Below, in pieces: positions 16,947 to 57,813 of a stretch of DNA of 64,000 nt. The DNA lies in the IMG/VR virus record IMGVR_UViG_3300035183_001031; one strand, 5' to 3'. Below the pieces are notes generated by a model, which worked only from the letters and a program-made list of their open reading frames with translations, had not been told where the DNA came from and did not search any database. How positions within the stretch are numbered: position 1 is the stretch's first letter; the number at the start of each line of letters is the position of its first letter. The position numbers and the translations under genes are program-made. This stretch comes from an uncultured virus (IMG/VR IMGVR_UViG_3300035183_001031). Its lineage: Duplodnaviria > Heunggongvirae > Uroviricota > Caudoviricetes.

Positions 16947-16954
16947 AAGGCTCC

Positions 16955-21147: not shown

Positions 21148-21165
21148 TAGCGCTCGCTTGAGTCG

Positions 21166-29073: not shown

Positions 29074-29106
29074 GAGCTGTCTATCGAATACCTGGAGAAG
29101 TTATAA

Positions 29107-36072: not shown

Positions 36073-36456
36073 TTGTCAATCGGATTTAACTTTCCGTTCC
36101 AACCAGCGACTGGCTCTCTTGGGTACCTTGAGGTGACGGATGATGTCGCGTCAGCCATCGTGGCAAACCTTCGCTCTCTCTTGCTTACGAACTGGGGCGA
36201 GAGGGTGATGCACTTCGACTTTGGCTGTAACCTTCGAGAGTTCATCTTTGAACCTCGCTCGAAGTCGCTCAAGGGGAGGATCGCGGAGCGGATCAAGGCC
36301 CAGGTTGCAAAGTGGATGTCGTTCCTCACCCTGACTGGAATCTTCATTACATTTGCCGACGAGGATCCGGCTGTTCCTGAGAATGGCTTCCATATTCACC
36401 TCACCCTCGTGTACGGGAACATCCCGGTCGAGGCAACTGTGCTCTTTTCGGGATGA
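36073..36456 (+). CDS. gp25/GPW baseplate wedge protein
   Basis: NLRSLLLTNWGERVMHFDFGCNLREFIFEP. Confidence 0.9.
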   Translation: MSIGFNFPFQPATGSLGYLEVTDDVASAIVANLRSLLLTNWGERVMHFDFGCNLREFIFEPRSKSLKGRIAERIKAQVAKWMSFLTLTGIFITFADEDPAVPENGFHIHLTLVYGNIPVEATVLFSG

Positions 36457-36462
36457 TCTGTC

Positions 36463-38283
36463 ATGGCGATTGATGTCAAGAAGGAGAGGATCGTCAGCCT
36501 CACGAATAGGGACTTCAAGTCCCTCAAGCGTGACCTGATCAATTTCGGCAGAGCGTACGCATCTGGGTCTTTCACTGACTATAACGAGAGCTCTCCCGGA
36601 ATGGCTATCTTGGAGTTCCTCGCCTATGTCGGTGACGGTCTCCACTTCATGCTTGACCAGGCCTTCAACGAGTCTGGGGAGGGAGCGACCCAGCTTGAGA
36701 ATGTGATCGCCCTGGCAAAGGCTCGTGGATATAGACCTCAGGGAAAGAGGCCGTCTGTCGGAACGCTTCATTGGGCCGTCGAGGTTCCAGCGACTGTCGA
36801 CTCGTTCGGTCGAGTGGTCCCTGACGATGCCTACACTCCGACCCTTCTGAAGGGTTCACAGGGAATGGCTCAGAACGGCACCTTGTTTGAGACCCTGGAG
36901 GACATTCACTTTACGGCTTCACTCGGCCGTGAGGTTACCGGCTCTCGTTTTGATTCGAATACGGGAATGCCGACTCACTTTGCGATCAGGAAGTATGTCG
37001 ATGTGATCGCAGGGAAGACGGTCACCGAGACGTTCACCATCACCGAGTTCCAGCAGTTCAGACGCATCGACCTGAGCTATGAGGATGTGATCGAGGTCAT
37101 CGATGTCTTCGATGAAGAGGGGAATGAGTGGTTCGAGGTGGACTACCTCGCACAGGACTGGGTGTTTACCTCCGACACCAACCCTGGAGATGACGGTGTG
37201 TCAGTCCCGTATGTTTTGAAGCTCCAGTCAGCGCCCCGTCGTTTCATCGTTGATCGAAACATCGCAACCGGAGTCACCTCGCTGGTCTTCGGATCAGGTG
37301 ACGGTGTGAGCTACGATGACGAACTCATTCCGAATGTGGCCAGTTATGCCCTGCCGTTAGCTGGAAGACGTACTTTCAATAGCTTCAACATCGACCCTCA
37401 GAACTTTCTGAAGACGCGCAGCCTCGGCCTTTCGCCTCATAACACGACTTTGACGGTGCGCTACCGCGTAGGAGGTGGTTCTGAGACTAACGTCCCTGCT
37501 CGTTCGGTCAGGCAGCCGATCGTGGTGAACCTCTCGTTTGCTTCCACAGGCCTCGATCCCCTTAAGAAGGGCGCCGTCGAGGCGTCGATCGGATGCATCA
37601 ACCTTTCCTCCATGAAGGGTGGAGGTCCGGCCGAGACGATCAAGGAGATCAAGGCCAACTCTGCGGCGTTCTTCGCGTCCCAATCGAGGGCGGTCACTCG
37701 TGAGGACATCGCGGCACGGGTTCTCTCGCTACCGTCAAAGTTCGGAGCGATCGAGAAGGTCTTCGTTAAGCCGACCGAGGCCGGTAGGTACTCGTATGAC
37801 GTCCACATTCTATCGTCAGACGCTGACGGTAACCTTACGACGGCTACTCCGACGCTAAAGTCGAACCTGGCAACGTATCTCAAGAAGTTCAAGATGCTCA
37901 CTGACGGGGTGAACATCCTCGATGCAAGCATCCTGGACATTAGAGTCTACTTCGGGGTAGTTGTCGCATCCGGTAAGAACCGCTCTGAGGTCCTTTTGAA
38001 CTGTGCTACTCGGTTGCAGGAGTACTTCAGGCGCGATAACATGCAGATCGGTCAACCGATCGTGGTCTCTGACGTCGTCGGCGTGCTTCAGAGCATCCAC
38101 GGGGTAGTCTCGGTGTATGAGGTCTCATTCACAAACGTCTTCGGGGTGACCGACGGGCTTTCATACTCCGACGATCGGTTTGCGATCACGGACAACCTTC
38201 GGGACGGCATGTTGATCTGTCCGACCGGAGCGATCTTTCAGGTCAAGTATCCAACCCGGGACATCGTCGGGAGCGCACGATGA
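36463..38283 (+). CDS. baseplate wedge protein (T4 gp6/baseplate J-like)
   Basis: RDFKSLK, DYNESSPG..LEFLAYVGD, YRVGGG, GG..AETIKEIK, RAVTRED. Confidence 0.9.
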   Translation: MAIDVKKERIVSLTNRDFKSLKRDLINFGRAYASGSFTDYNESSPGMAILEFLAYVGDGLHFMLDQAFNESGEGATQLENVIALAKARGYRPQGKRPSVGTLHWAVEVPATVDSFGRVVPDDAYTPTLLKGSQGMAQNGTLFETLEDIHFTASLGREVTGSRFDSNTGMPTHFAIRKYVDVIAGKTVTETFTITEFQQFRRIDLSYEDVIEVIDVFDEEGNEWFEVDYLAQDWVFTSDTNPGDDGVSVPYVLKLQSAPRRFIVDRNIATGVTSLVFGSGDGVSYDDELIPNVASYALPLAGRRTFNSFNIDPQNFLKTRSLGLSPHNTTLTVRYRVGGGSETNVPARSVRQPIVVNLSFASTGLDPLKKGAVEASIGCINLSSMKGGGPAETIKEIKANSAAFFASQSRAVTREDIAARVLSLPSKFGAIEKVFVKPTEAGRYSYDVHILSSDADGNLTTATPTLKSNLATYLKKFKMLTDGVNILDASILDIRVYFGVVVASGKNRSEVLLNCATRLQEYFRRDNMQIGQPIVVSDVVGVLQSIHGVVSVYEVSFTNVFGVTDGLSYSDDRFAITDNLRDGMLICPTGAIFQVKYPTRDIVGSAR

Positions 38284-39641
38284 TCTATCGGATCTTTCCG
38301 TTCAAGGATACGTTCATCACGAACGACTACGTCGCACCGAACTTTACGCGGTTGACAGGGGCCAACGTCGGTTTCTCTGAGGAGCTTGACGTCTTTAAGC
38401 GGGCGGGCATCTCGGGAGCGATCGGGACGGCTGGTTCTGGGACGCTTGCCAGGGCGTTGCTGCAGTTTGATCTATCGAAGTTCTCTGAGCTGACCGCCTC
38501 GGGGGACATTCCGACGGCCGGCTTGACCTTCCATCTCAGGATGAACCATAAGACCCGTGGATGTCCTGAGCCGAAAAGCTATGAGTTGACCATCCGTCCC
38601 ATCTCGTCATCTTGGGATGAGGGTGATGGCATGGACGTCAACACGTACGCCGATGACGGATATGCCAATTGGGAGAAGCGGACTTCGACTCAGTATTGGA
38701 ACGTCGCCGGCGGCGACTTCTTGCCCTCTCCGACCGCAAGCGCGTACTTCGACACTGGCACTGAGGACATCGACGTCGACGTTACCTCGATCGTAAACGG
38801 TTGGTTGAGCGGTACCTTTCCAAACTACGGCGTCGCCGTCCACATGACGGCGAGCCTAGAGTCAGACTCTGTTTACGTCGACTACTACCGCAAGAAGTTC
38901 TATTCTCGACACAGCTCGTATAAGGATCGTCGTCCGTACATTGAGGTCCGTGTCAATGACTTCCGAGGCGACGATCGGGCCAATATGCAGTGGTCACGGA
39001 CTGGCTCCCTGTATCTCTACAATGTCGTCGGAGGTGTTTTCACTGACCTGATTGGCCAGGTAGTGGTCAGCATCGCAGACGCATCTGGCGTCCTCATGCA
39101 TGTCACAGCGAGCCAGGTCGGCACCGGTATCTACAGCGCATCGTTTGCGTTGCCGACCGGATCGTACAGCGGATCTCTTTTCTACGATCGCTGGCGTGCA
39201 GGAGCGGTCGCAATGACCACTGGAACGTTTACCCTCTCAAAGCCGAATCCGGTGAACACCTTGGCCCAGCATCCTTTGATCGCTAGGGTCAGGAACGGGC
39301 AAGATGAGTATACTCCTGAAGATGTGCCGGTGTTTGAGGTGCTGTTTCGTAAGCGCCCCCATACCGTCCCTGTGCTATCGACAGCCTCCTTGGGTCCGAC
39401 TCCCTATATCGTGGAGAGGGCGTGGTATGCGATCGAGAACTTTGCCACGAAGGAGCGGGTGGTCCCGTTTGGAACTGGCTCGCAGAACCACACCAGATTG
39501 TCCTATGGAGGCTCGGGAAACTCGTTCAAGTTCCACATGTCGAACCTCCATCAGGGAAACGTGTACCGGATCATTTTCCTCGTCGATGAGCAGGGTCGAA
39601 AGCAGATCGTAGATCCTGGGTACAAGTTCAAAGTTGTCTAG
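38280..39641 (+). CDS. virion structural protein (DNRLRE-like domain)
   Basis: KDTFI, RALLQFDLS, WDEGDG, DVTSIVNGW, NYG, RPYIEV. Confidence 0.65.
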   Translation: MIYRIFPFKDTFITNDYVAPNFTRLTGANVGFSEELDVFKRAGISGAIGTAGSGTLARALLQFDLSKFSELTASGDIPTAGLTFHLRMNHKTRGCPEPKSYELTIRPISSSWDEGDGMDVNTYADDGYANWEKRTSTQYWNVAGGDFLPSPTASAYFDTGTEDIDVDVTSIVNGWLSGTFPNYGVAVHMTASLESDSVYVDYYRKKFYSRHSSYKDRRPYIEVRVNDFRGDDRANMQWSRTGSLYLYNVVGGVFTDLIGQVVVSIADASGVLMHVTASQVGTGIYSASFALPTGSYSGSLFYDRWRAGAVAMTTGTFTLSKPNPVNTLAQHPLIARVRNGQDEYTPEDVPVFEVLFRKRPHTVPVLSTASLGPTPYIVERAWYAIENFATKERVVPFGTGSQNHTRLSYGGSGNSFKFHMSNLHQGNVYRIIFLVDEQGRKQIVDPGYKFKVV

Positions 39642-39688
39642 AAGGTCGGAGAGCGTGGAGAGAACCTTGGCTGCAAAGAGGCCCCAGA

Positions 39689-41407
39689 ATGCCTGACATC
39701 TTCAGTCTTTTTGACGGAAAGATGGGCGCCGGCTCCGCGGCCGCTGTCTCTGCGCAGAGCCAGGATTCATTCTCAGACGTGGGTCCGGAGAATGACCTGG
39801 TCACGAGGCTCGCGTCGGGCTCAGATATGGTCGACCTGAACGTCGACTACAGTGACTTCTCGAACTTTGTGACGTTCAACTCAGCCGAGTCGTACGTCAA
39901 CGTCACAGCCGATCAGATCCTAAACGAATATCCATTCGGCGGAACTGTGGATGACCTCCAGGCGTTCTTGGATTCACTCGATGGGTACCAGCGATACTTC
40001 CTTGGAAGGTGGCCATCGCGGACGGGACATCTTCGACTGAATCCGATGGTGTCCTCGTCATACATTCGCATCGATGACTTTGGCGTCCAGGACGGGGTCG
40101 CGCGTTCTTCGTTTGTCAGCCCCGGCACAGGGTCGCTGTCCATCCAGGGATGGATTGACGTCCCAGCCATGACTGGATCTAACGATGTCATGGTCGTTTT
40201 CCAAAAGTTGCGGCGGGGGACCACAGACGGCGTCTCCGTGTACGTCTCGGGCTCCAGCTTGTACTTCTTGGTTGCCTCCGGTTCAAACTCTTGCGTAGTC
40301 TCAGGTGCCCTCTCGACGATGCCGTCATTTTTCTCGGCGGTGATCGATCGCTCCGCGGTGACCGGGACGGTCATGCTCATCACGGCGACGACCGGTACGT
40401 TTCCTATCGTCCGTGACACCACGACGATGGTGATGGGAACTAGGTTCGACCTTGCCTCTGGGTCGTTTTACATCGGATCGGGATCGATCTCCGGAAAGGT
40501 GGTGCGACCTTTCACCGGAAGTCTGGATGACATCAGCGTCTGGTCGAGCGTTCGGAGCTTGTCGGCCCTCACGAGTTCGTACAACCGAAAGATCTATGCA
40601 CAGTCCGGTCTTCTCGGTGCATGGCGTTTTAACGAGGCAACCGTCTCCACCCCAAGCTCGTACGCTTCCATTGCGAGAGACTGCTCGGGACATAGGCTTG
40701 ACGGGCGGATCCAATTCTATTTTTCTGGTTCAAGGGGATCCGGCTCACTCGCGTTCGATTCCCCAGATCCGATCCTCAGCTTGGATGATCCTGACGTCGT
40801 CAGCTATATCGTTGAGGCGCAGACCTCAGGATCAAACTTTGATCGTCAGAACGACTCGTTGATCTTCAACCTTTTTCCAGGGAAGTTTTCACAGGGATCA
40901 CAGTCGTTCCAGAATTTTGCTCTCATCCTGGCACGGTTCTTCGATAGGATCAAGCTGTATATCAAGCAGCTCCCTAACCTGAGGAAGGTCGACTATTCTG
41001 AATACGACAGCGCTCCTGACGATCTGCTCGAGGACGTCGCAGCGTTGTACGGCTGGAAGCTTGATGGGAACTTCTCGACCGTCGATGCGTTCAAGTATTT
41101 CCTCGGGCGTGACATATCGCCCGGGCCGCAGGCGAACGTCTCACTCGACACTCGTCTAGCAGATATCAAGTCCAGGTTCTGGCGTCGGGTCCTGCAGAAC
41201 CTGATGTACCTGTATAAGACGAAGGGAACCCGCGAGTCGGTCGAGGCACTTCTTCGCATCTACGGAGTGAACAACGGCTTCGTTCGTCTAAAGGAGTATG
41301 CCTACAGGGCCGAGGCACGACTTCCCGTCGTAAGAGTTGTCTCTGAAAAGAGTGTCAACGCCCTTATGTTTTGTAGCGGGTCCACGGTGAAGTTCGTGGG
41401 GAGATGA
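39689..41407 (+). CDS. baseplate protein with LamG domain and gp7/tail-protein-I-like region
   Basis: FTGSLDDISVWS, GAWRFNE; RRVLQNLMYLYKTKGTRESVEALLRIYG. Confidence 0.7.
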   Translation: MPDIFSLFDGKMGAGSAAAVSAQSQDSFSDVGPENDLVTRLASGSDMVDLNVDYSDFSNFVTFNSAESYVNVTADQILNEYPFGGTVDDLQAFLDSLDGYQRYFLGRWPSRTGHLRLNPMVSSSYIRIDDFGVQDGVARSSFVSPGTGSLSIQGWIDVPAMTGSNDVMVVFQKLRRGTTDGVSVYVSGSSLYFLVASGSNSCVVSGALSTMPSFFSAVIDRSAVTGTVMLITATTGTFPIVRDTTTMVMGTRFDLASGSFYIGSGSISGKVVRPFTGSLDDISVWSSVRSLSALTSSYNRKIYAQSGLLGAWRFNEATVSTPSSYASIARDCSGHRLDGRIQFYFSGSRGSGSLAFDSPDPILSLDDPDVVSYIVEAQTSGSNFDRQNDSLIFNLFPGKFSQGSQSFQNFALILARFFDRIKLYIKQLPNLRKVDYSEYDSAPDDLLEDVAALYGWKLDGNFSTVDAFKYFLGRDISPGPQANVSLDTRLADIKSRFWRRVLQNLMYLYKTKGTRESVEALLRIYGVNNGFVRLKEYAYRAEARLPVVRVVSEKSVNALMFCSGSTVKFVGR

Positions 41408-41410
41408 CAA

Positions 41411-42277
41411 ATGGCTGATAACACTACGATAAATCCCGGAAGCGGCGGCGATACCCTTCGGACAGATGACGTCGGTGGAGGCGTCAAGGTCCCTGTCTCA
41501 AAGATCATTACGGGAGGTGATGGTATCGACGGCGGTTTCGTCGGTATGTCGAACCCGTTCCCGATCATGATCGTGTCGGGGTCAGACGTTGTCGGGACCG
41601 TGACGAATCCGCTTAGGGTAAGCGGCTCCATCGGTGTACTTGTTGGCGGAGTACAGGCTGCTGCATCAAATCCGTTACCGGTCATCCACAGCTCGGGCTC
41701 CCAGACCGGTCTGTTGGTCGGCTCAAACCCGGTCAACTATTCGAATCCGTTACCGGTCATCCACAGCTCGGGCTCCCAGACCGGTCTGTTGATTGGCTCA
41801 AATCCGGTCAACTACTCAAATCCGTTGCCGGTGACCGGCGCTATCGGAGTGCTTGTGGCAGGCTCCCAGGCGTCTAGGACGAACCCGCTTCCGGTCTATT
41901 GTATGGCTGAACCTGCCGGGCAGATTATGTCCGGTTCGACCGTCGTTCCTGTCTACCATGCGTTCGGTGATTTCGGTACGTCTGGTTCCGCGAACCAGGT
42001 TATCCCGCCGCAGGGCGCCGGTAAGAGGATCGCAGTTCTCTCTGCGCACCTCATGGCGCCTTCGACCGTCTTTGTCAGGTGGCAGTCGACCGGTTCGGCT
42101 GGTACCATCACTAACATCTCTGGTCTGATGCCTGTGCCGGCGAACGGCGGTTTTGTGTTACCACACAACCCACACGGTTGGTTTAAGACCCTCGCAAATG
42201 AGGGCCTCAATCTCAACTTGAACAGCGCCGTTAGTTGCGGCGTCATCGTCACCTGGACCGTCTTTAATAACCCATGA
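41411..42277 (+). CDS. fibre or decoration-like protein with NPLPV repeats
   Basis: Repeated SNPLPV; internal 25-aa tandem repeat. Confidence 0.6.
   Translation: MADNTTINPGSGGDTLRTDDVGGGVKVPVSKIITGGDGIDGGFVGMSNPFPIMIVSGSDVVGTVTNPLRVSGSIGVLVGGVQAAASNPLPVIHSSGSQTGLLVGSNPVNYSNPLPVIHSSGSQTGLLIGSNPVNYSNPLPVTGAIGVLVAGSQASRTNPLPVYCMAEPAGQIMSGSTVVPVYHAFGDFGTSGSANQVIPPQGAGKRIAVLSAHLMAPSTVFVRWQSTGSAGTITNISGLMPVPANGGFVLPHNPHGWFKTLANEGLNLNLNSAVSCGVIVTWTVFNNP
41669..41832 (+). repeat. 75-bp coding tandem repeat (~2.2 copies)
   Basis: Units at 41669, 41744 and 41819 (NPLPVIHSSGSQTGLLVGSNPVNYS). Confidence 0.9.
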
Positions 42278-44142
42278 GCCTCTGTCTCTCATTCGCTGGA
42301 AGCGCCGGGCTCGATGCGACGACCCTGGTCTCGATCACCGTCTCTCCGTCTCCGATGGTCCTCTACCTCTGAAGCATGGGATCGCCACAGCAGGCATACG
42401 CGACAGGAACGTATTCCGATGGCAGCACTGCTGACATCACGAACGCTGTCACGTGGACGGTCAGTGATACCTCGATTGCGACGGTCGGGACGTTTACCGG
42501 CCTTGTCACGATCGCCGATGCTGGCAAGATCTGGGGTGGGACGATTGGGTTGACGGCGACGCTTGCCCCAGGAACACCTGGCACAGCATCGATCGTTGTC
42601 GTGTCATGCGACAGCGGCTCTGTAGCACCGAGGATGCCGCAGTCAGATGATCAGTGGATGGCCTTGGGGCTCTCACCGTGGGGTTCTTGGTGGGGATTGC
42701 AGGAGTTGACTGGCAACCTGGTCGGGAGCGGATCAGCAGCGTTTACCCTGGCGGCCTCGGTCGCCCCGGCGGGCGGTGTGATCTCTTTTGGACAGACAGA
42801 ATCCGGTTGGCTTCGAAAGACAATTGTCCTCTCTGGGACAAACTCGGGTGGGTCTCCCAACTTCCGTGGGACGGGCCCGAACTTGCAGACGTCGTCCACG
42901 GCATTCCTCGCTTACTGTCGGATGCCTCTAGGACAAGGAAACCTCGGGTTATTCGGTCAACCGAGCGACTCGGCCACAAACATCCTTGCGATGGCCTCAC
43001 ACACTTCTTTTGGATACTATGGGGAGGTGATGGCGAGGATTCAGGGCACATCGAAGATGGTCATCTGTCCAACCCCGGCACGGATGGACGATCGTATTCA
43101 TCCGATGCTTGTCGTCTATAACAAGACGACCGGCGATGCGCTCGCTTGCACTGACATGGGCGTCGTCGTGTCGAGCAGTCTAGCTGCATTTTCAGCTACA
43201 AGTGTCGGTCTCGGTCCGCTATTCGGGACGACGGGCGGCGCTGCCTCTGCGTCATTCAGCTATTTTGCCATCGCGACCGGTTCCATCGTTGAACCGCTCA
43301 CAGATCCGTCCGGTGCAGCTGATTTCCTCTCACGGCTCGGCTGGAACGTCATATGGAAGGACTGCCCGATTGACTCAGGAAGCATCAGGCTTCCCTATGT
43401 GCCACACCACTGGAAACAGCTTGGTCAGCAACCGTGGACTGCGACCTGGAACATGCAGGAGCCAGCCGGAACTAGCCTTGTTTCATACAACGGTTGGGAC
43501 GGTAAGAATGTTGCGGCATGGACGCTGACTCCATCGAATGCCGCTCTTCGATATCCGTGTCCAGGTTGGATGAGGGTAGGTGTCAACCTAACTAACGCGA
43601 CGTCGCGGCGAATCATGATCACTGATGTCTTGAACGGCGACGACAACCTCTGGAATCCAACGGGATCGATCGCGATGATGGTCTACGGAGACATCGAGGC
43701 GGTCGGAGGAGGGTCGTATGGTTTGATCGGTAGCTCTCCTAGCGTCAGTCAGCTTGGCGCGGGTGGGACGGTCGCGCTTCATGGCGTCGGTCTTGGCAAG
43801 AAGCTGGCGGTCTACTGTTCAGGTACCTCTGTCACCGGTTCATATGACCATGCCGACGGGAGGGTCCATCCGTTCATGCTCGTCTATGACGCGACCAACC
43901 AGAGGGTGAAGGGATACTCTGACTTGGAGGCCATCACCGGTTCGTATCAGCCGCTGTCACTGTACACAAGCCTCACGTCGTCGATAGGCATCGGGGGCAT
44001 CCCCCAGTGGGTGACATCAGTCGCAGTGAGCGGGACGTACCTGTACTTCACGATCTGCACCGGAAGCCTCGCTGAGCAATTGAGCGACGATGGCCAGGCA
44101 AGCCAGTTCCTCAAGAGCCTCGGCTGGAACCCACCCTGGTGA
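42274..44142 (+). CDS. Ig-like (Big_2) plus two lectin-like repeats; in-frame TGA at 42370-42372 (otherwise starts at 42376)
   Basis: TLVSITVSP...*SMGSPQQAYATGTYSDGSTADITNAVTW; two internal repeats ending FLSRLGW and FLKSLGW. Confidence 0.65.
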
Positions 44143-44150
44143 GGTGAAAG

Positions 44151-45422
44151 ATGGCCCTCGGCGGCATCATCCTCTATCTTCAGTTTCAGAACTCTTCGGG
44201 GAGCGTCGCGTCAGTTCCAATCTTACGCGCCGGGGGAGAGTTCAGCGCAGAGATACGGGTGAGATTTCCATCTTCGACAAATGACAATCTCACTCCGACT
44301 GAGCTCTCGGGAGCCCTGTTTACCCTTAGCGTGGGTTCGTCGCCTGCCGGCTATCTCTCTGTCTGGTATGAGAAGGCGTCGGCTGCGAGCACGACCGGAA
44401 CGGTGTACGTCACGTCATCGGCCGGAAGGCTGGAGCTCCCATCCGTTCCGATCTTTGATGATAGGTTCTACAACATCTCGCTCGTTCGTGAGAACTCCAC
44501 CGGCTCCCTGAGGCTCTCGACGATCCGATACGAGGCAGACTCTTTGACATTCAGCACCTCGAGCGTGGCGCCGAGCGGGTCGACTGGGTTTGCGCCGGCT
44601 GCCTCTTACGATACCGTTGAGCTCGGTTCGTCTGCGTTGGTCCCGTCTCGGGGACAGTTCTGGGCACAGGAGTTTCGGCTCTGGACCGGATCGCTGCGCG
44701 ATTCGGAGCTGCATGCCCACGCGAGGCATTTTGAGAGTTACGGTCGTGAAATATCGTATGATAATCGTGAACTCTTGATCCATTGGAGGTTGGCCGACGG
44801 AGTCTCGGCCGACTCATCTGGTAGCATCTACCTCCTTGATTCGACCCCGGCGGGCTGGACGGCGACTGGAAGCAATTTCATCCCTAATCGATCTCCGTTC
44901 ACCAAGTTCCTCGAAGATTACGCCTACATTCCAAGCATCGATTACGGCTGGAACCAGGAGAAGGTTCGCACCTACACAGGAACCACCGTCGATCCGCTTG
45001 AGAGATACGAAGATGAGAGGTTCGTCTCCCTTGAGTTCAACATGTTCGATGCCCTCAACGAGGACATCTCACACCTGATGGCCTCGTACGATGAGCTGAA
45101 CAACATCCTCGGTCATCCCATGAACCGATACCGGCATGACTACGAGGGCCTCCAGCAGATGCGGGAGACCTACTTCAAGAGGTTCCAAGGCCAGCTGAAC
45201 TTCCGTGCCTTCGTGGACATGTTGGATTTCTTCGATAGCTCCTTTGTCACGATCGTCCAGAGGCTTATCCCTGCCAGGAGCATCTTTAAGGGTGACGAGA
45301 TCGTGGTCGAGAGCCACATGTTAGAGCGTCCGAAGTACACCTACGGATTCAGGCCCATCCGTGAAGGAATCATTGATATCAGCGGAAGCATCTCCATCGT
45401 CGAAAGGAATGAGGACTGGTGA
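44151..45422 (+). CDS. baseplate/tail protein with LamG-like domain
   Basis: QEFRLWT, LLIHWRL, GDEIVVESHMLERPK. Confidence 0.6.
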   Translation: MALGGIILYLQFQNSSGSVASVPILRAGGEFSAEIRVRFPSSTNDNLTPTELSGALFTLSVGSSPAGYLSVWYEKASAASTTGTVYVTSSAGRLELPSVPIFDDRFYNISLVRENSTGSLRLSTIRYEADSLTFSTSSVAPSGSTGFAPAASYDTVELGSSALVPSRGQFWAQEFRLWTGSLRDSELHAHARHFESYGREISYDNRELLIHWRLADGVSADSSGSIYLLDSTPAGWTATGSNFIPNRSPFTKFLEDYAYIPSIDYGWNQEKVRTYTGTTVDPLERYEDERFVSLEFNMFDALNEDISHLMASYDELNNILGHPMNRYRHDYEGLQQMRETYFKRFQGQLNFRAFVDMLDFFDSSFVTIVQRLIPARSIFKGDEIVVESHMLERPKYTYGFRPIREGIIDISGSISIVERNEDW

Positions 45423-47401: not shown

Positions 47402-47404
47402 ACC

Positions 47405-50781: not shown

Positions 50782-52409
50782 GCCTTCAACAGATAGCAGA
50801 TTGCCTGAAGGCAGGGTTGTCGATGGATGCCTCGAAGGAGGATGCCCAGAGGTTCCTGGATGCCTGTCAGTACACCGCCAGCGTCATGAATGTAGAATTT
50901 TGGATTGACGCGGGGGCAAGTCTGTCGACTGTCCAGGTAGCCATGTTGATCCGCGGTGCTATCATGGAGCGCATCAATAAGATCAACGAGGTCCATGTCC
51001 TCGCGTTGTCCCGCGGCTACCTCTTGCCAGACTCCCCCTTTCCTAAGATCGAGGCGGTGAACGCAGGACGTCGTCTGTTTCAAGACCTGCCGTGGGACTT
51101 CAACACACAGGTCATCCTCCAGAATGCCGCAAAGGAGCTTTCGGAGGTTGCCCAGGCATTCGTTGATGGGAAGGTCACCTTTGATCGGAAGCCCGCCGCA
51201 CAGCTGTCGTCCTACGAGGTCTCCGTCGATGGCATCTCTCCCCAGAGCGGAGACGCGTTGGCAGACATCCTCGGATATCAGCCGGACGGAGACTTCGTCA
51301 AGAGGAAGCGGGCCATCGATGCGCTGGCGAAGCTTGACTTCTCGAAGAGGAAGCCGTACCTCCTTTTCACGCTTGAGTCTGACGACGGCATCACGGTCTG
51401 CTGGTCCAAGATGCGTGATGCTGCTGGGTACATCATCTCAAGACGTGACGTCTTTGCCGGTGTAGACTTGCCGCCGATCACCCTTAGTAACGAAGGGCTA
51501 GAGGAGTCCACCAATGACCTCCTGCAGGATGAGAAGTTCTGGCAGGCCCTGTCATTCTATGATTGGGCGGGCCCCCACGACGTCTACGCCTACACCGACG
51601 ACGGTGTGATCGAGAATACCCTCTACTCGTATCGGATCTCAGGCCTTCAGAGGAAGGTGCCGGCGACTCCGTTCATCTTTGATGTCCCGATGAACGCCCT
51701 TTTGTTCTCGCCGACGATGGCGCAGGCCGCCACGAAGGCGTTGCAGGATGAGGCCACTCGCTTTGGTCGTGATACTTCGACGATTAGTCCGTATCCAGCT
51801 CTGTCGGAGGCTCTCTACGGCGATCCGGGGTTCGGATGGGTGATCGCAGGATGCAATGTCCTGGCCAGCATCAGGAGGGGAGATGCGGTCGATGACGTCC
51901 GCGCGAACTCATACATTGGATCACGTGCAGATAGGATCTTTGCTGAGGCTAGGGCAGGTCGTCTGTTCGTTCCGACTGACGTCGGGACGGTTCAGAAGAA
52001 CGTTGAGGCCGCGATCTCTTCATACGGAGTTTCACAGACAATCCTGTCCATCCTTGATGGAACGGGCGCGACCAACTTCATCTCCGGAAAGGATGATCCG
52101 AACGGGATCCAGGCCACCCAGGCCTCGATAGAAGGGTCCACTGCCGGCCTCGCCAGGATCCTCTCAGTGATCGATCCTGAGACTGCTACTCTTGATCCGA
52201 CCCTGATCTCGGTCGCCAGCAGGGCCCAGATCAAGAGCAGTAAGAGCTTTGCGGTTGACTTCCTCGATGCAAGGTCAGGTCCGACTCCGCCCTCCTTCGC
52301 TGAGATCGCAGGATCTGATGTGATCGACCTGACCACGTACTCAGGCATCAATCGATTCATGCAGATCCTTCGGGCTATCTATGATTTCTATCCAGGAGCC
52401 TTCTCCTGA
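50778..52409 (+). CDS. hypothetical virion protein (one FN3-like segment)
   Basis: ITVCWSK..AAGYIISRR...YTDDGV..YSYRI. Confidence 0.6.
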   Translation: MSLQQIADCLKAGLSMDASKEDAQRFLDACQYTASVMNVEFWIDAGASLSTVQVAMLIRGAIMERINKINEVHVLALSRGYLLPDSPFPKIEAVNAGRRLFQDLPWDFNTQVILQNAAKELSEVAQAFVDGKVTFDRKPAAQLSSYEVSVDGISPQSGDALADILGYQPDGDFVKRKRAIDALAKLDFSKRKPYLLFTLESDDGITVCWSKMRDAAGYIISRRDVFAGVDLPPITLSNEGLEESTNDLLQDEKFWQALSFYDWAGPHDVYAYTDDGVIENTLYSYRISGLQRKVPATPFIFDVPMNALLFSPTMAQAATKALQDEATRFGRDTSTISPYPALSEALYGDPGFGWVIAGCNVLASIRRGDAVDDVRANSYIGSRADRIFAEARAGRLFVPTDVGTVQKNVEAAISSYGVSQTILSILDGTGATNFISGKDDPNGIQATQASIEGSTAGLARILSVIDPETATLDPTLISVASRAQIKSSKSFAVDFLDARSGPTPPSFAEIAGSDVIDLTTYSGINRFMQILRAIYDFYPGAFS

Positions 52410-54175
52410 TGCCTTCTAAGCTTGCCAACGTTGTCTATGGTACGGCCCTTGGGGAGCTCACGGAGGTCGCTCCGTCTCCAGAGCCGACCCCTGTCAAGAC
52501 CCCTATCAAGGGAGGGGTCGGCGATGCTCTCCCTGAGAGTCAGATCGGTGGGGTCAAGGTTGGCACACGGCCGCCCGAGATCAACCCGAGTGAGACAATC
52601 TTGTCTTCAGAGTCGGTTCGGGCCTTTCACTCGACCCTTTTTAGGAGGTTCAACCTTCGAGCCATCTCGACGTATAACTTCTACGTCGATGGTGAGGATG
52701 TAGCTCCGACGTTCGATGCGTCCGGATCGCTCTCTGACCTTCCGCGGTATGTGACCCTGAGGTGGGCCACCGCTCCAACGCTCGTCCCGAAGGGCGGTAA
52801 CAAGACGTCGCGGCCGTTTGCAAGTCCGAAGATCATCTCTCCGCCTATTGCGGTGAAATTTGATGTCGCAGCCTCATCGCTCGCGAACGGATTCATCGAG
52901 CCAGGGGTGATCTCCTCGATCATCACGGCCCCGATTCCGCCTGCGATGAACCAGCCGACGACCCTCGACGAGGACTCATTTCTGCTCGATCCGGCTGCCG
53001 CCGGTCAGTCTGCGGCCGATCACGTCGGTGACGCCAGCTCCCCGTACACCTATAGGACGCGTCCGACCGCGAGAGAGGCCACTGTGGTCAAGTTCATCGA
53101 CCCATCCATCGTTGGAGCGCTTGATGCGAACAGGATCACCGTGGCCCAGGATCCAGCCCAGCTTACGGTCCTTGGTTCACTTACGAAGATCATGGGGTCA
53201 CTCGAGGTCATCTCTGAGTTCAATCAGGATGTCCAGGTCCAGAATCCACCGCCTGACTTCACCGGTGTCCCAGACGCCCCTGCCGTGCTCTACGTGGGAT
53301 ACGTGATTGAGAGACACGACCTTAAACCGGACGGCTCGATGGTGAGAGGTCGGGTCATCAACATCGACGATCCAACGCAGGATGAGTTTATCGATAGACA
53401 GGTCGCGTACAACGGTACGTACTTCTATCGCATTAGGTCGATCGTGCAATGGACTAGGACCAGCAACGTTGACTTCATGGGCCTATCCACGATCGATAGA
53501 CAGACAGCCTTTTCATCCCTTGTTGCCCCTCCCCTCTCATCTTTCTACGCCGGAGATTGGTCGGATTGGGCGCGGACGCAGGTCATCGACAACCTCCCAC
53601 CAGAGCCACCCGACGAGATCATCGCGAGGCCGGTGTCGTGGAAGGGAGAGATCCACGTCTCGTGGAAGGAACCGAACGATCCCCAACGAGACATCTCCTC
53701 TCTAGTCCTCGTCCGGGCCACCTCCGACGACGGAATGATCTCAGATTGGAAGGAGATCAAGATCTTCCCCGTCGGAAACGGCCTCTACGTGGATCGTGAT
53801 GTGGTCCCGTTTGAGCAGGGTCAGCGGGCATATATCTACGCCCTGTATTCGAACTCGTACCACGGGGTCATCTCCCCTCTCAGCGAGCAGATCGAGGTAA
53901 GGTTGTCATCGAGGGATTCTCGTGAGGAGTTTCCCGTGGTGCAGCTTGCTCCCCGTGGGGCTGATCCGATGATCCACGCATCAGCACGGCAGATGGTCGC
54001 CTCGACCGAGATCAATGCCAATCGGCGCCTCACCTTTTACTGTAGAGATGCCCGGAGCGGACATCCCCTACGGGACTCTACGTATGTCATAGAGGTCCGG
54101 TCACTGGCGACCGGTGAGAGGGCGCTTGTCACTATGGACGTCGATGCCATCGACATAGGTGTCGCAGATGCATAA
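52409..54175 (+). CDS. FN3-containing virion protein
   Basis: VGYVIER, FIDRQVAYNGTYFYRIRS, PPEPP..VSWKEP. Confidence 0.6.
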   Translation: MPSKLANVVYGTALGELTEVAPSPEPTPVKTPIKGGVGDALPESQIGGVKVGTRPPEINPSETILSSESVRAFHSTLFRRFNLRAISTYNFYVDGEDVAPTFDASGSLSDLPRYVTLRWATAPTLVPKGGNKTSRPFASPKIISPPIAVKFDVAASSLANGFIEPGVISSIITAPIPPAMNQPTTLDEDSFLLDPAAAGQSAADHVGDASSPYTYRTRPTAREATVVKFIDPSIVGALDANRITVAQDPAQLTVLGSLTKIMGSLEVISEFNQDVQVQNPPPDFTGVPDAPAVLYVGYVIERHDLKPDGSMVRGRVINIDDPTQDEFIDRQVAYNGTYFYRIRSIVQWTRTSNVDFMGLSTIDRQTAFSSLVAPPLSSFYAGDWSDWARTQVIDNLPPEPPDEIIARPVSWKGEIHVSWKEPNDPQRDISSLVLVRATSDDGMISDWKEIKIFPVGNGLYVDRDVVPFEQGQRAYIYALYSNSYHGVISPLSEQIEVRLSSRDSREEFPVVQLAPRGADPMIHASARQMVASTEINANRRLTFYCRDARSGHPLRDSTYVIEVRSLATGERALVTMDVDAIDIGVADA

Positions 54176-54187
54176 ATAGGGAGAGTT

Positions 54188-54901
54188 ATGGGGTACAACG
54201 ACAACACCACCGACTTCTATATCGATGCGACGGTAACGGACGTTGGCCGTCGTGCCCTCGCGAGGAATGACGGAAGCTTTTCCGTCGTCAGGTTCCGTCT
54301 TGGAGACGATGAGATCGACTATCGGGACTGGAACGCCCTCACTGGCTCAGACAGCAAGGACGCGAAGATCCTCGACACGCCGATCCTTGAGGCCTTGACG
54401 AACGAGACTGTTGCCCTTCGCAACCCGCTCGTCACGATCAGGAACTCCTCGCTGCAGTACATGCCGAGGATGGTTTCCAATCCGTCCAGCGTCTCTTTGA
54501 AGGAGCGTACTGACAGCGCCGGCGGCGGCGTGAGCATCACGGTCTCGCAGCAGACCACCCGTTCTCAGGCGATCATCCCGGCCGAGCTCATCGACGTGAA
54601 CTACATCATTGAGGTCGATAACGACTTGGTCTACGTTCCCAAGGAGGTACCGGTCTCCGTGCAGCCCTTCGGGACAGCGAAGTATATCATCCCGGCCGAT
54701 CCTACCGCGACCACATCGGCTAACGGGACCCAGTGCGTCTTCACGCTTCGAGTCCAGACTATCAGCGACGAGGTCTTTAACGTCCTTGCTGGTGTCACTG
54801 CCTCTCGACCGAGGACGATCAACACGACGGTCACTGTCACAGGACAGCAGAGCGGTCTCTCTGTCCAGATCCCGGTCTCCATCCTCGAGTTTGTGGGGTA
54901 A
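54188..54901 (+). CDS. virion structural protein
   Basis: IDATVTDVGRRALARNDGSF..FRLGDDEIDY...PILEA. Confidence 0.65.
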   Translation: MGYNDNTTDFYIDATVTDVGRRALARNDGSFSVVRFRLGDDEIDYRDWNALTGSDSKDAKILDTPILEALTNETVALRNPLVTIRNSSLQYMPRMVSNPSSVSLKERTDSAGGGVSITVSQQTTRSQAIIPAELIDVNYIIEVDNDLVYVPKEVPVSVQPFGTAKYIIPADPTATTSANGTQCVFTLRVQTISDEVFNVLAGVTASRPRTINTTVTVTGQQSGLSVQIPVSILEFVG

Positions 54902-54904
54902 TCA

Positions 54905-55900
54905 ATGTCGTATAAGTCCATAAACTTCCAGCAGGACTTCGCCCCGCTCTCGACAGCGGTCAACGAGGTCATCTCGATCTCTGGTTCGATCCCGGCGAAC
55001 AACTCGAACGTCAAGTTCTACAAGAACATTGCGTCAGGTTCTGCCGCGATCGATCTTGGCGGATACTACGAGACAGTGTACGATTCGGCTCCCTCGTCGG
55101 CCCTCTCATCTCCTCTCTTTGACATCACATACGGCATAACGACGGGCTCCGTGTACAACGTTGCGTCGACGACCACCTCGTCGCTGACCGAGAAGGTGAA
55201 GATCCATCGTCAGATGGCAGCCCTCTTGCTTGGTAATCCTGACAGCAAGTTCACCATCAATTCACAAGAGAGAAACGAGGCGATCTTCATCCTCTTCAAG
55301 AGGAACATCCTCAAGGATGAGCTCAAGAAGGGCACGATCGCCTTCACGATCAACTCGACCGCTCCGACGCAGTACACGGCCTCCGATGCCGGCGCCGCCT
55401 CTACCTTTAAGCAGACGGTCGGCGGCGACTACGCCCCACTCAAATACAACGGTACGGGTTCTGAGGTCGGCCAGGTCTGGTATCAGGCCGGCGTGATCGT
55501 CCTTCCTCCTGACCTCTGTTGGGGTGCCATCGCCAACTGGTCCGGCACCAAGACGCTGGTCAACATCCAATCATCCGGAACCATTAACCAGATCGTCGAT
55601 GGGTTTAGGACCCACGTGGAGAACATCCAGGTGAACAATCAGACGAACCTCCAGTCGTCGGTGTACTTCTGTCGTGCGTACAATAACGAGTTTAACTACT
55701 CGTCGAACCCAACCTTCGTGAACGCTGACGGCCTGATCAGGGTTACCTCAGGAAGCAACATCTTGACGACCCAGACTTACATCACTACCATCGGGCTCTA
55801 TGATGAGAACGACAACCTCCTCGCTGTCGGTAAGACCAACAAGCCGGTCCTAAAGAGTCCGCAGACAGAGGCGGTGTTCCGGTTGAGGCTCGACTACTGA
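54905..55900 (+). CDS. tail-associated structural protein
   Basis: FNYSSNPTF...YITTIGLYDENDNLLAVGK..KP..FRLRLDY. Confidence 0.65.
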   Translation: MSYKSINFQQDFAPLSTAVNEVISISGSIPANNSNVKFYKNIASGSAAIDLGGYYETVYDSAPSSALSSPLFDITYGITTGSVYNVASTTTSSLTEKVKIHRQMAALLLGNPDSKFTINSQERNEAIFILFKRNILKDELKKGTIAFTINSTAPTQYTASDAGAASTFKQTVGGDYAPLKYNGTGSEVGQVWYQAGVIVLPPDLCWGAIANWSGTKTLVNIQSSGTINQIVDGFRTHVENIQVNNQTNLQSSVYFCRAYNNEFNYSSNPTFVNADGLIRVTSGSNILTTQTYITTIGLYDENDNLLAVGKTNKPVLKSPQTEAVFRLRLDY

Positions 55901-55908
55901 GGTAATCC

Positions 55909-57813
55909 TTGTCCGTCTTCAAGCGGTTTGGGCCGGGTGACCAGATCGACAACGTCCTGGTCCTCGAGCCGCTTTGGACTGTGACCTCCGGCACCGGAGG
56001 TTGGAGGGGGTCCCCCGAAGGGTCGGCCTCTGTCAGCCTCTATGGCGGCTATAATAGGCAGCCCGCTGGGGTAGTTCAAGAGTACCGTTTCCAGCGGACC
56101 ATCCAGGGCACCGACTCGTTCGGCCAGCTAGTCCGATCTGGGCCGATCACTGCCTCGATCAACTATGTGTGGGCCACCGACGAGGACCTGGGTCTCTTGC
56201 AACGGTCATCCACCAGGTGGGGTCATGAGCATTGGAAGACGGTTATGCGGCTCTATGACTATTACAGTCGTAGGGACCCTGACTATGTCACCTCATCGTA
56301 CAACCATTACTGCCTTTACTTCAACTCCGGTTCTTCAAATATCGTTACGGTCTTCGATAGGTACTCATCGAACCCCGAGAGGTTCCGAGCGCTTCCGACC
56401 GGGTCATTCACGATGGAAGCCTGGTTCAAGCCGTTTACGACCGGTACGAGTGGGGTTGAACTGACGATATTCGGACGGGCTCGTTCGTATCGGATGTATC
56501 TGGACGGTTCGACCGGAAAGCTGAATTTCGACATTCACAGTGGAACGAACGCAGTCCACACGACGGTGACATCGTCGATCGCGGTCACCCCTCTTCAGTG
56601 GCACCATGCCGCTATCTCGTTTGACCACACCACGCTGACGGGGGCTATGTACCTCGATCTACAACAGGTCGCGAGCTTCACGTACCCCAGTCCTATCCCG
56701 AATCCCAACAACTACACGGGCTCGCTGCACATCGGAGCGGCGTACGGAGGCGCAGTCAGTCAGCAGTTCTCACATTATTATGAAAACGTGGCTCTTCATG
56801 CTGCCGGTCAGGCCGGGTCGGTCTTTCATGGCTTCATTGGGAACGTCAGGATATGGGGCGCGAACCGGAGCTGGGCTCAGATCTCCGCGTCTCACAATGT
56901 CAGGCTGACTGGATCTGGGCTGGCGGCCCCGCTCCTGTGTGACATACAACTCAGCGAGGGTCCGCTCGTGTATGCTTCTCCTTCTGGGGACGTTTCGGGG
57001 TTCATCGTCTCATATGCGAGCGGGGGTTTGGTCGGCTCTGGAGTCCTTGATCACGCGGCCGCGTACCAGGCCAAGAGCCCTGACTACGGAGTCCTCTATA
57101 AGTTCAGCGATCGGATCGGTCCGGTCTGGCATCCGAACGATAACGCTCGATTCTATGTTCCAAAGGAGTTCATCCCAACCAAGATCTCGGGCACCAACTG
57201 GTCATCATCTGGGTCTCTTCCGGTGGAACGTCTAAGGATCCTGAGTATTCCGGCAGGTTTTACGGGTCGTCAGATCACGAAGGGCTCGGTTCGAGTCACT
57301 GATAACACCTACAGTGCATCGACCCACGGACTTCGACGAACTTTGATCGACGATGGAAGGGGAGGTCTGTATCTGTCTGGCTCTGCTGCGCTCGGTAGCA
57401 CCGATTCACACGGCAGCGTTGGGTGGAACAAGGTCGGGAACGTCTTCTACAACGAGGGACTGATCGTCATCAAGGATCCAGCCCTGTTGGATTTCGCCCA
57501 TCCAACTGAGCATGCCTCTGATGATGAGAACAATCTTCTTCAGCTTGAGTTTCGAGGCAACAACAGAATCTATGTGAAGACTCTGATGTGCCGGATCGAT
57601 CGCGGAGATTACAACGCTTCGCTTAATCCGACATTCTATCGGACGGAAGAGGATGGCAATCGGGTGCGCCGGTATCAGACCGGGTCCCTATACATCACCA
57701 CCGTGGGCATCTATAACTCCAGTCGTGAGCTTGTTGGGGTCGCGCGGCTCGCGGAGCCGCTTCGGGGTCGTCCACGTGACAGGATGAACATCAAGCTCAG
57801 ATTGGATTTTTGA
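55909..57813 (+). CDS. tail-associated protein with LamG domain (C-terminus paralogous to 54905)
   Basis: SFTMEAWFKP, WHHAAISFD, FHGFIGNVRIW; YITTVGIYN...IKLRLDF. Confidence 0.7.
   Translation: MSVFKRFGPGDQIDNVLVLEPLWTVTSGTGGWRGSPEGSASVSLYGGYNRQPAGVVQEYRFQRTIQGTDSFGQLVRSGPITASINYVWATDEDLGLLQRSSTRWGHEHWKTVMRLYDYYSRRDPDYVTSSYNHYCLYFNSGSSNIVTVFDRYSSNPERFRALPTGSFTMEAWFKPFTTGTSGVELTIFGRARSYRMYLDGSTGKLNFDIHSGTNAVHTTVTSSIAVTPLQWHHAAISFDHTTLTGAMYLDLQQVASFTYPSPIPNPNNYTGSLHIGAAYGGAVSQQFSHYYENVALHAAGQAGSVFHGFIGNVRIWGANRSWAQISASHNVRLTGSGLAAPLLCDIQLSEGPLVYASPSGDVSGFIVSYASGGLVGSGVLDHAAAYQAKSPDYGVLYKFSDRIGPVWHPNDNARFYVPKEFIPTKISGTNWSSSGSLPVERLRILSIPAGFTGRQITKGSVRVTDNTYSASTHGLRRTLIDDGRGGLYLSGSAALGSTDSHGSVGWNKVGNVFYNEGLIVIKDPALLDFAHPTEHASDDENNLLQLEFRGNNRIYVKTLMCRIDRGDYNASLNPTFYRTEEDGNRVRRYQTGSLYITTVGIYNSSRELVGVARLAEPLRGRPRDRMNIKLRLDF

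Follow-up and report, generated by a model that had tools for sequence, protein, structure and literature searches.

An ordered [ST]-G-[ST] tripeptide enriched in the outward-facing tail proteins of a clade of large aquatic myoviruses is a candidate O-glycosylation sequon

We analyzed a stretch of 64,000 nucleotides of an uncultured Caudoviricetes virus (IMG/VR record IMGVR_UViG_3300035183_001031), hereafter the window, in which positions 36073-57813 form the baseplate and tail-fibre module of the virus, a large myovirus. The proteins of this module have an approximately six-fold excess of [ST]GS tripeptides. We suggest that [ST]-G-[ST], with Ser preferred at the third position, is a tag for a trans-acting factor encoded by the phage, most likely the O-glycosylation sequon of its outward-facing tail proteins. 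We give this reading a probability of about 0.45. It draws on the counts of the tag, on where it sits in the modelled structure, on its distribution across the clade, and on the coupling of its loss with changes in GT_2N, the GT4-type domain (residues ~1-380) of a three-domain glycosyltransferase (GT) encoded upstream of the module.

The open reading frames (ORFs) of the window are mechanical longest-ORF calls and were not curated. Across the 15 plus-strand ORFs of the module (7175 amino acids, aa), 71 [ST]GS were observed and 11.1 were expected from within-protein shuffles (standard deviation 3.3); the highest count among 2000 shuffles was 25. Both versions of the motif contribute, SGS with 41 vs 6.4 (z of 14) and TGS with 30 vs 4.6 (z of 12.7), and the tripeptide ranked after them has a z of 7.5 with 3 occurrences. 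The 43 non-structural ORFs (11471 aa) have 5 [ST]GS, against 4.8 expected. A sequence-only reading of this DNA had claimed such a strong enrichment in virion proteins from counts made by eye, and the recount bears it out: 12 motifs in 39689-41407, 12 in 45419-47401, 7 in 41411-42277, 4 in 38280-39641, 5 in 54905-55900, and 7 in 55909-57813, with 0 in the 1050-aa glycosyltransferase and 0 in the 1041-aa SbcCD fusion, as had also been claimed.

Could such a short motif accumulate simply because these proteins are rich in Ser, Gly, and Thr, or through low-complexity repeats or a signal at the DNA level? The tail proteins are indeed richer in Ser (8-14%) than the other proteins, and one internal repeat contributes 2 of the motifs. 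Yet the excess goes beyond composition, and even an expectation that preserves dipeptides (35.8) reaches only about half of the observed 71. The permutations of the motif are not enriched (GSS 12 vs 6.4, SSG 10 vs 6.5, GST 8 vs 4.6). Codon usage within the motif, where both families of Ser codons and each of the four Gly codons appear, matches that of the background. The DNA pattern that encodes it was counted 71 times in the coding frame; the two remaining frames have 18 and 3 copies, and those of the reverse strand have 17, 11, and 3. This frame specificity indicates that selection acts on the protein. Composition, low complexity, and a DNA-level origin were thus rejected by the shuffles, the permutations, the frame specificity, and the codon usage, and we regard an artefact of this sort as very improbable. 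The motif is ordered and synergistic, neither half being enriched alone: xGS where x is not Ser or Thr occurs 50 times vs 51.7 expected, and [ST]Gy where y is not Ser or Thr occurs 73 times vs 88.4. Among close variants, [ST]GT (23 vs 8.0) and [ST]AS (20 vs 9.9) are more frequent than expected, and NGS does not occur. A hydrophobic residue follows the motif at 64% of 70 sites, compared with a background of 41%.

The excess is a property of a clade of large aquatic myoviruses and not of fibres generally. In a control set of 28 structural proteins of phage T4, including gp6-12 and gp34-37, each protein has 0-4 motifs and all are close to expectation, which rules out the motif as a general property of tail fibres. 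We used the gp6-like protein of the module (36463..38283) as the marker of the clade. Full-length relatives were found in 6 of 50,697 phage records: Microcystis phage Mel-JY01, the uncultured 484-kb LR756508, and four records of Flavobacterium phage immuto. The ORFs downstream of gp6 are enriched in Mel-JY01 and immuto (e.g., 11 vs 1.5, 9 vs 0.55, and 26 vs 6) and unenriched in LR756508 (ratio of 2.1). We also scanned IMG/VR with a gp6 profile, taking the best 80 of at least 600 matching stretches, and tabulated 73 gp6 loci, of which 24 with less than 800 aa of downstream ORFs were dropped. In 46 of the 49 loci left from these best 80, the ORFs that follow gp6 have an observed/expected ratio of 3.0-8.9 and those before it show no excess; the other three loci are L031 (1.6), L040 (1.0), and L029 (1.9). 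The clade is very large and globally distributed, and its hosts range from cyanobacteria to Bacteroidota.

Within genomes, the enrichment appears to be restricted to the outward-facing parts of the tail and virion. In Mel-JY01, the tail module, the sheath (4 vs 1.0), and a 508-aa structural protein (13 vs 2.5) are enriched, and the capsid, portal candidate, tube, terminase, and two giant proteins are close to expectation. The sheath of immuto has 7 [ST]GS vs 1.3 expected. Outside its tail module, immuto also encodes a 373-aa ORF (L160:11031-12152; record positions 135031-136152) with 12 [ST]GS vs 1.3, arranged in runs with a period of six residues (TGS-LST-SGS-LGV-TGS) and belonging to no Pfam family.

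Where the fold of a motif-rich protein could be modelled, the motifs are predicted to sit at beta-turns. The protein 39689-41407 has a LamG match under the cut-off (PF13385, 22.8 bits), and its AlphaFold2 (AF2) model is all-beta at residues 150-285, with a predicted local distance difference test score (pLDDT) of 84-92 in the domain blocks 151-250 and 261-280 and of 70 in block 251-260. Seven motifs begin in this domain, at residues 147, 162, 187, 197, 257, 264, and 276, the first of them within the 141-150 block, which has a pLDDT of 58. In the model, all seven occupy a turn directly preceding a strand or a two-residue hairpin between strands. In the model of 54905-55900, the only motif in a block with a pLDDT of 71-81 is the one at residue 184, at a hairpin turn.

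This location suggests an explanation in which nothing is attached to the motif: [ST]-G-[ST] could be the clade's own cis-acting way of making tight beta-turns, hairpins, and fibrous beta corners. The seven turns of the LamG domain fit it, as do the hydrophobic residues that tend to follow the motif and the six-residue periodic runs (TGS-xxx-SGS-xxx-TGS) in fibre-like proteins of relatives. So do the several sites that are kept across distant homologues, such as an alignment column with TGS in 10 of 10 enriched rows. Nevertheless, turn propensity leaves the synergy unexplained, since xGS and [ST]Gx remain at expectation and NGS is missing, and the baseplate and fibre proteins of T4 manage without any excess. 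In other proteins, motif positions turn over at constant density. In 44151-45422, none of the 5-6 aligned sites is retained in relatives at 42% identity, and in 54905-55900, none of the 2-5 aligned sites is retained in four distant homologues at 31-33% identity; yet these homologues have 2-5 motifs at other aligned positions, with 2-4 in the four of 54905-55900. In these proteins, judging from the alignments, the positions of the motif move and its density stays. Substitutions within the motif are chiefly exchanges between Ser and Thr at both flanks and replacements of the central Gly by Ser or Ala.

Further evidence on these two explanations comes from phages that lost the excess. In a quick IQ-TREE phylogeny of gp6 with Shimodaira-Hasegawa-like approximate likelihood ratio test (SH-aLRT) support, the non-enriched L029, L031, and L040 form a clade (support of 99) nested in a clade of 13 rows (100), in which the ratios of the remaining 10 members are 3.9-6.6. 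LR756508 is nested in a 30-row enriched clade (95). Since both non-enriched groups lie among enriched phages, the excess was lost twice. We scored 15 alignment sites at which [ST]G[ST] is present in half or more of the enriched rows from the clade of 13. Among the 45 corresponding cells of the non-enriched phages, 3 retain the motif, 20 retain the Gly with one or both flanks lost, 16 have lost the Gly, and 6 are gaps. Retention of the Gly in 20 of 39 ungapped cells is what a turn would favor. However, homologues with the same domains in two nested lineages retain the motif in only 3 of 39 ungapped cells. Because nearly all conserved sites were lost in proteins that keep these domains, the hydroxyl flanks are dispensable for the fold, and their joint loss at many sites and in several proteins argues for a shared trans-acting cause rather than an intrinsic need of folding. 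This coordinated loss of flanks points to the footprint of a trans-acting reader, as far as aligned sequences can tell. We therefore consider a purely structural role doubtful.

Which enzyme could read the motif? GT_2N matches PF13692 (39.6 bits, cut-off 27) and PF00534 (37.4 bits, cut-off 26.4), although membership of GT4 does not reveal the acceptor. An HGEGxGxPxxE block, which gives the domain the Glu-containing C-terminal motif expected of such enzymes, is present in all 23 aligned copies. The domain occurs in 5 of the 50,697 phage records, namely Mel-JY01 and the four of immuto, and its closest ESM-Atlas clusters are all viral. It is intact in the seven enriched genomes that include the region (the window, G008, G010, Mel-JY01, immuto, G005, and G007) and was not found in the non-enriched LR756508. 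The association was also approached from the other side, with 20 long contigs picked solely for GT_2N in a scan that, like that of gp6, took the best 80 of at least 600 matching stretches. A gp6 gene is present in 13 of the 20 as well, and every one of these 13 shows an excess downstream of that gene (ratios of 2.5-6.5, P of at most 3.6e-4). The complete 170-kb G015, which lacks a gp6 match at an E value of 1e-10, has 107 [ST]GS vs 35.7 expected over its whole genome. Altogether, all 21 enriched genomes whose GT region can be examined have an intact GT_2N. G002 and G003, which represent the second of the two nested lineages without the excess, carry GT_2N and are unenriched (ratios of 1.8 and 2.0). 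Their copy differs from the others in two ways: one of the 30 columns invariant across the 21 enriched copies is altered (WSG to WGG, Ser to Gly), and a loop of ~19 aa present in all 21 is deleted. In sequence terms, then, the excess appears to track GT_2N, which is absent or uniquely altered in two independent non-enriched lineages (three genomes).

The sequence-only reading had linked the motif to the GT/heptose locus upstream of the module and proposed their co-occurrence across related phages as a test. Part of this holds, in that the excess tracks one domain of that locus, intact in every enriched genome with the region; the 18-kb locus as a whole and its heptose genes are not a conserved correlate. 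We rejected co-occurrence of the entire locus, because just three of its genes (those for the PD-(D/E)XK nuclease, GT4_1, and GT_2N) are shared by Mel-JY01, immuto, G005, and G002 alike, and the genes at 15948, 26201, and 30174 have homologues in one or two of these four genomes. GT4_1 was rejected as the discriminating enzyme, being present in the non-enriched LR756508, G002, and G003. A GT2-type partner, fused or adjacent to GT_2N, initially looked better, with 7 of 7 enriched vs 0 of 3 non-enriched genomes. It was dropped as a correlate after being found in only 9 of 14 further contigs and in three GT2 types without detectable orthology (probability of 33%). The partner is patchy and non-orthologous, so a second enzyme could not be pinned down. 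L228 is an enriched contig of 196 kb in which the second ORF beyond GT_2N (12520-13299) gives a weak MptE-like match (PF01973, 29.4 bits, below the cut-off), to a family that includes the Maf flagellin glycosyltransferases.

Several observations weigh against a sequon read by GT_2N. Within the module itself, three large tail ORFs (48001-54175) show no enrichment, with 3 motifs in total vs 2.0 expected, and the motif is not avoided in non-structural proteins. GT_2N and GT4_1 are both present in the non-enriched G002 and G003, so that presence alone is insufficient and the argument there comes down to one residue and one deletion. Since both traits are probably ancestral, the association amounts to just two independent coupled losses. 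The enriched G006, G009, and G011 have no GT region; together with G004 they are fragments without that region, and the three, 29-81% complete, are uninformative. A GT2-type partner, fused or at most three ORFs on, is found in only 16 of the 21 enriched genomes. On the structural side, the second AF2 model (54905-55900) is poor, with a mean pLDDT of 54, and 39689-41407 retains 8-9 of its 12 sites at 45-47% identity. Furthermore, the location at beta-turns and the Gly often retained in non-enriched relatives would fit a purely structural role as well.

The coordinated gain and loss of the motif demands only some shared trans factor, and this factor need not be a glycosyltransferase of the phage. 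The motif could be read by a different modification (e.g., phosphorylation or acylation), by a chaperone or assembly factor, or by host glycosylation, with the GT locus serving another target such as the host envelope. The occurrence of GT_2N in G002 and G003 would be explained in this way. The window covers about a third of a genome (the nearest record, G001, has 68 kb and is 33% complete), so other enzymes may lie outside it, and the clade has chaperonin genes: a Cpn10-like gene in the GT locus of the window, and annotated GroES and GroEL in immuto. On the other hand, Microcystis and Flavobacterium belong to different phyla, which makes a shared host enzyme less likely, and the unique defects of GT_2N in G002 and G003 fit the glycosyltransferase. 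We also screened Mel-JY01 for ORFs that immuto and G005 share with it and that G002 and LR756508 lack. This yielded seven candidates: three virion-type or large proteins, two transferases of the GT2 type, and two small ORFs (98 and 120 aa). Not one of them turned up in G007, G008, or G010, and all seven were rejected. We judge a reader of another kind unlikely.

A more specific version of the glycosylation reading, which we advance tentatively as possible rather than probable, is that [ST]-G-[ST] is the sequon of GT_2N itself, a virus-only GT4 protein O-glycosyltransferase that would prime lineage-specific glycan coats on the distal tail. The tag would remain constant while the sugars diversified, and here the coat would be made with ADP-heptose produced by the phage. 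In the mechanism that we propose for the leading reading, the GT_2N part of the 16955-20107 protein would, in the infected cell, recognize the tripeptide displayed on tight beta-turns and hairpins of proteins of the baseplate periphery, the fibres, and, in relatives, the sheath. It would place the first sugar on the Ser or Thr hydroxyl, and lineage-specific enzymes would then extend or decorate the glycan. In the window, this decorating set may comprise the fused GT9 and GT2 domains, the further GT4 and GT9 enzymes, the methyltransferases, the phage-made supply of ADP-heptose, and the other nucleoside diphosphate (NDP)-sugar enzymes. The distal tail would end up with a coat of sugars that depend on the lineage, attached at a tag that does not change.

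The genes that supply sugars do vary in this way. In the window, the heptose genes resemble HldE domain I (best NCBIfam match TIGR02198, E value of 3.3e-35), HldE domain II (TIGR02199, 1.4e-28), and ADP-glyceromanno-heptose 6-epimerase (3.2e-47), all below the equivalog cut-offs; GmhA and GmhB were not seen among the domain matches of the window. In immuto, the corresponding genes are aminotransferases and a gene of the pilin-glycosylation type, and in G007 they are a GDP-mannose dehydratase, PfkB, HAD, and an NTP-transferase. L273 has fucosyltransferase-like genes and LR756508 has sialyltransferase-like ones. In LR756508 (L145:2641-12088; ~302.6-312.1 kb of the record), the PD-(D/E)XK and GT4_1 genes are flanked on one side by a ThyA-type thymidylate synthase and on the other by a sialic-acid-like set (a CMP-type cytidylyltransferase, a GT29 sialyltransferase-like protein, and a GT25). 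Because the sugar-nucleotide genes change from lineage to lineage, heptose is at most a lineage-specific decoration, and +192 Da need not be the linking mass.

The idea that the window itself performs heptosylation of the Aah/TibC type did not survive comparison with these enzymes. TibC and AAH are cytoplasmic GT9-related enzymes, members of the bacterial autotransporter heptosyltransferases (BAHT), that hyper-heptosylate Ser in the beta-helix passengers of TibA and AIDA-I using ADP-heptose, and the accessible part of the source gives as TibC sites only Ser, in the contexts QN-S-GG and NT-S-AA (PMC4358343). The same part describes as hallmarks of the family an iron-finger with four conserved Cys and a beta-hairpin thumb for forming the dodecamer (PMC4358343). 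There may be likenesses to our case: many sites per substrate, at turns of beta-rich and surface-exposed proteins, as the motifs of the window are at modelled beta-turns, and ADP-heptose as the donor, for which the window has a putative pathway at the level of domains together with two GT9 domains. However, the contexts reported there differ from [ST]G[ST], and the GT9 domains of the window are not TibC-like. Searches against the PDB at E values up to 1 with the 1050-aa glycosyltransferase, its middle domain, and the 302-aa GT9 protein returned no TibC chain; the GT9 domains match the lipopolysaccharide (LPS) heptosyltransferase structures 3tov and 1psw weakly, over ~60-110 residues. PF21129 (TibC_1st) is absent from the Pfam matches of the window proteins at E values up to 0.001, and BLASTP of the two GT9 domains against the TibC-like domain of Mel-JY01 gave E values of 0.054 and 0.11.

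That domain of Mel-JY01 is of interest in itself. A 1226-aa protein (L015:4750-8430), annotated as 'methyltransferase FkbM', consists of a GT_2N-like GT4 domain, a middle part of ~410 aa, and a C-terminal TibC homologue (4RAP, E value of 1.2e-69, over residues 23-383 of the 406 of the chain). Its TibC_1st match is below the cut-off (20.5 bits), and the BLASTP output places a C-x-x-C near the expected position. The gene adjoins that of the 508-aa structural protein with 13 [ST]GS, and together they form a candidate cassette for protein heptosylation by a phage. The adjacency of a TibC homologue and a motif-rich protein makes protein glycosylation by a phage of this clade plausible on independent grounds. 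A 639-aa 'cytidylyltransferase like protein' is encoded 3 kb downstream of the TibC-bearing gene. Among the 14 genomes compared, a TibC-like domain turned up in Mel-JY01 alone, and it was therefore rejected as a clade-wide factor.

How does this compare with other systems? In cytoplasmic protein glycosylation, enzymes of the NGT/HMW1C type read an N-X-S/T sequon, and the general O-glycosylation of Bacteroidota uses D-[ST]-[AILVMT]. As may be the case here, a tripeptide is a sufficient local determinant and its over-representation in surface proteins is a genomic footprint, although the residues and the enzyme families of those systems are unlike ours. In phages, Freeman et al. (Cell Host Microbe, 2023) reportedly described O-glycosylation of mycobacteriophage virions by phage-encoded glycosyltransferases. 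In these siphoviruses, according to the accessible part of the source, phage-encoded enzymes place glycans at the C termini of capsid and tail-tube subunits (PMC12619734). The resemblance is that enzymes of the phage would modify its own virion proteins in the infected cell and build an outward glycan layer. The difference is that our candidate sites, drawn from sequence alone, are an internal tripeptide at predicted beta-turns of the baseplate periphery, fibres, and sheath of myoviruses, with capsid and tube unenriched, and that the candidate enzyme belongs to another, virus-only GT4 family. In the literature on phage virion glycosylation (open-access papers and bioRxiv), we found neither an enzyme that reads [ST]-G-[ST] nor a sequon of phage tails, and a search for literature on Mel-JY01 returned no paper.

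Loci of this kind may also act on DNA. Pyle et al. (2024) are said to have described phage GT loci that hypermodify DNA with glycans. The present locus shares with them several glycosyltransferases and nucleotide-sugar genes in a large phage, its conserved glycosyltransferases having as a neighbour a PD-(D/E)XK nuclease and, in the case of LR756508, a thymidylate synthase. Hypermodification of DNA with glycans by large phage GT loci is also described in the accessible part of PMC13326640. Still, a DNA target would leave the protein motif unexplained. Furthermore, the digested DNA of immuto analyzed by liquid chromatography with ultraviolet detection and tandem mass spectrometry contains canonical dA, dC, and dT, with dG fully replaced by fdPreQ1, and the part of the article available reports no glycosylated nucleoside (PMC10516641). 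To the extent of that source, the conserved glycosyltransferases of immuto probably have another target, which weakens the case for DNA.

The features of the window are listed in Table 1. The module is of the T4 type, with gp25-like and gp6/J-like wedge proteins adjacent and the same order in Mel-JY01 and immuto; the PF04865 match of the gp6-like protein (20.7 bits) is slightly below the cut-off of 21.1. Most of the remaining ORFs have no assignable family in Pfam or PHROG. The gp7-like gene is split, 39689-41407 and 44151-45422 being the N and C halves of what is one ORF of ~975 aa in L018, L020, L021, and L022, with two motif-rich genes (41411-42277 and 42376-44142) between them. The split is not an assembly artefact, because L019 has the identical arrangement. 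No homologue of 41411-42277 was found in the 12 related loci searched, and the sole homologue of 42376-44142, in L019, retains 7 of the 8 motif sites at 49% identity. The three large unenriched ORFs, 48001-50781, 50778-52409, and 52409-54175, have 2, 0, and 1 [ST]GS vs 1.03, 0.46, and 0.51 expected, and the first has a weak match to phrog_31, 'central tail fiber J'. Being the sole big tail ORFs without an excess, they may be a recent import. The proteins 47405-48004 and 54188-54901 each match the same clade-conserved protein of ~200 aa over their N-terminal ~70-105 aa, and this pair of adaptor-like sequences suggests two sets of fibres. The GT locus (13263-32600) is headed by the PD-(D/E)XK nuclease in every relative that has the region.

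Table 1. Features of the window. Motif counts are [ST]GS observed vs expected.
Coordinates	Strand	Length (aa)	Feature	Remarks	[ST]GS
13263..14156	+		PD-(D/E)XK nuclease	PF12705, E 4e-18	
14282..15610	+	442	GT4_1, GT4 glycosyltransferase	Clade-universal, non-enriched genomes included	
15484-15948			Cpn10/GroES-like gene	Within GT locus	
15948..16946	+		NDP-sugar epimerase/4,6-dehydratase	Short-chain dehydrogenase/reductase (SDR) family	
16955..20107	+	1050	Three-domain glycosyltransferase	GT4 = GT_2N (~1-380), GT9-like (~569-661), GT2 (~772-889)	
21166..29073	+		Further GT4-type and Glyco_trans_1_2-type transferases	Also two methyltransferases, cupin	
25296-26204			Second GT9 domain		
26201-27121			HldD-like ADP-heptose 6-epimerase		
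30174..32600	+		Nucleotide-sugar dehydrogenase and HldE-like genes	HldE domain II-like adenylyltransferase (31102-31680); HldE domain I-like heptose kinase (31677-32600)	
36073..36456	+	127	gp25-like baseplate wedge	PF04965, 39.5 bits (cut-off 27.2); PHROG baseplate wedge	1 vs 0.08
36463..38283	+	606	gp6/Baseplate-J-like wedge	phrog_219, E 2.4e-20	2 vs 0.64
38280..39641	+	453	Baseplate protein kept across the clade	71 homologous ORFs in IMG/VR loci	4 vs 0.59
39689..41407	+	572	N half of split gp7-like giant baseplate protein	LamG-type beta-sandwich	12 vs 1.23
41411..42277	+	288	Protein within the split	Internal repeat of type NPLPVIHSSGSQTGLL	7 vs 0.80
42376..44142	+	588	Protein within the split		8 vs 1.75
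44151..45422	+	423	C half of split gp7-like protein	Motif positions shift among relatives	7 vs 0.70
45419..47401	+	660	Tail protein		12 vs 1.28
47405..48004	+	199	Adaptor-like protein	N-terminal ~70 aa similar to 54188-54901	2 vs 0.23
48001..54175	+	926, 543, 588	Three large tail ORFs	Unenriched	
54188..54901	+	237	Adaptor-like protein	Clade-conserved	1 vs 0.24
54905..55900	+	331	Tail protein	Clade-conserved	5 vs 0.47
55909..57813	+	634	LamG-domain tail protein	PF13385, 67 bits (cut-off 27.6)	7 vs 1.17

Other parts of the window deserve a brief mention. After the tail module, 58424-62487 encodes a primase-like gene and the 1041-aa SbcD-SbcC fusion, in the same order as in Mel-JY01, G005, G002, and LR756508. 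At the opposite end, the first ~6 kb (1-6000) have 62-67% G+C vs 50-59% elsewhere, and their ORFs have no homologues in any of the five related genomes compared; a pentapeptide-repeat protein is encoded there on the minus strand (1537-2307, PF00805, E value of 4e-34). Two neighbouring genes are of the DNA-glycosylase type (Fpg/Nei-like, 5855-6742; HhH-GPD, 6693-7211), and a stand-alone C39 peptidase domain of 149 aa (12023-12472) is found upstream of the GT locus.

If it is true that [ST]-G-[ST] is an O-glycosylation sequon, it would be the first defined sequon for the glycosylation of a phage's own proteins, and myoviruses would gain their first example of receptor-binding and baseplate proteins that are glycosylated. 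It would also give a purpose to the large "LPS-like" GT loci found in aquatic phages. Sequence alone is enough to read the genomic footprint in hundreds of uncultured aquatic phages, and the cultured relatives Mel-JY01 and immuto make the hypothesis directly testable. Even if nothing is attached to these sites, a six-fold, clade-wide bias that is specific to one class of proteins and was lost jointly at many sites in two lineages needs explaining. A sugar coat on the adsorption apparatus would affect the range of hosts, the resistance to proteases and grazers, and the stickiness of the particles in water.

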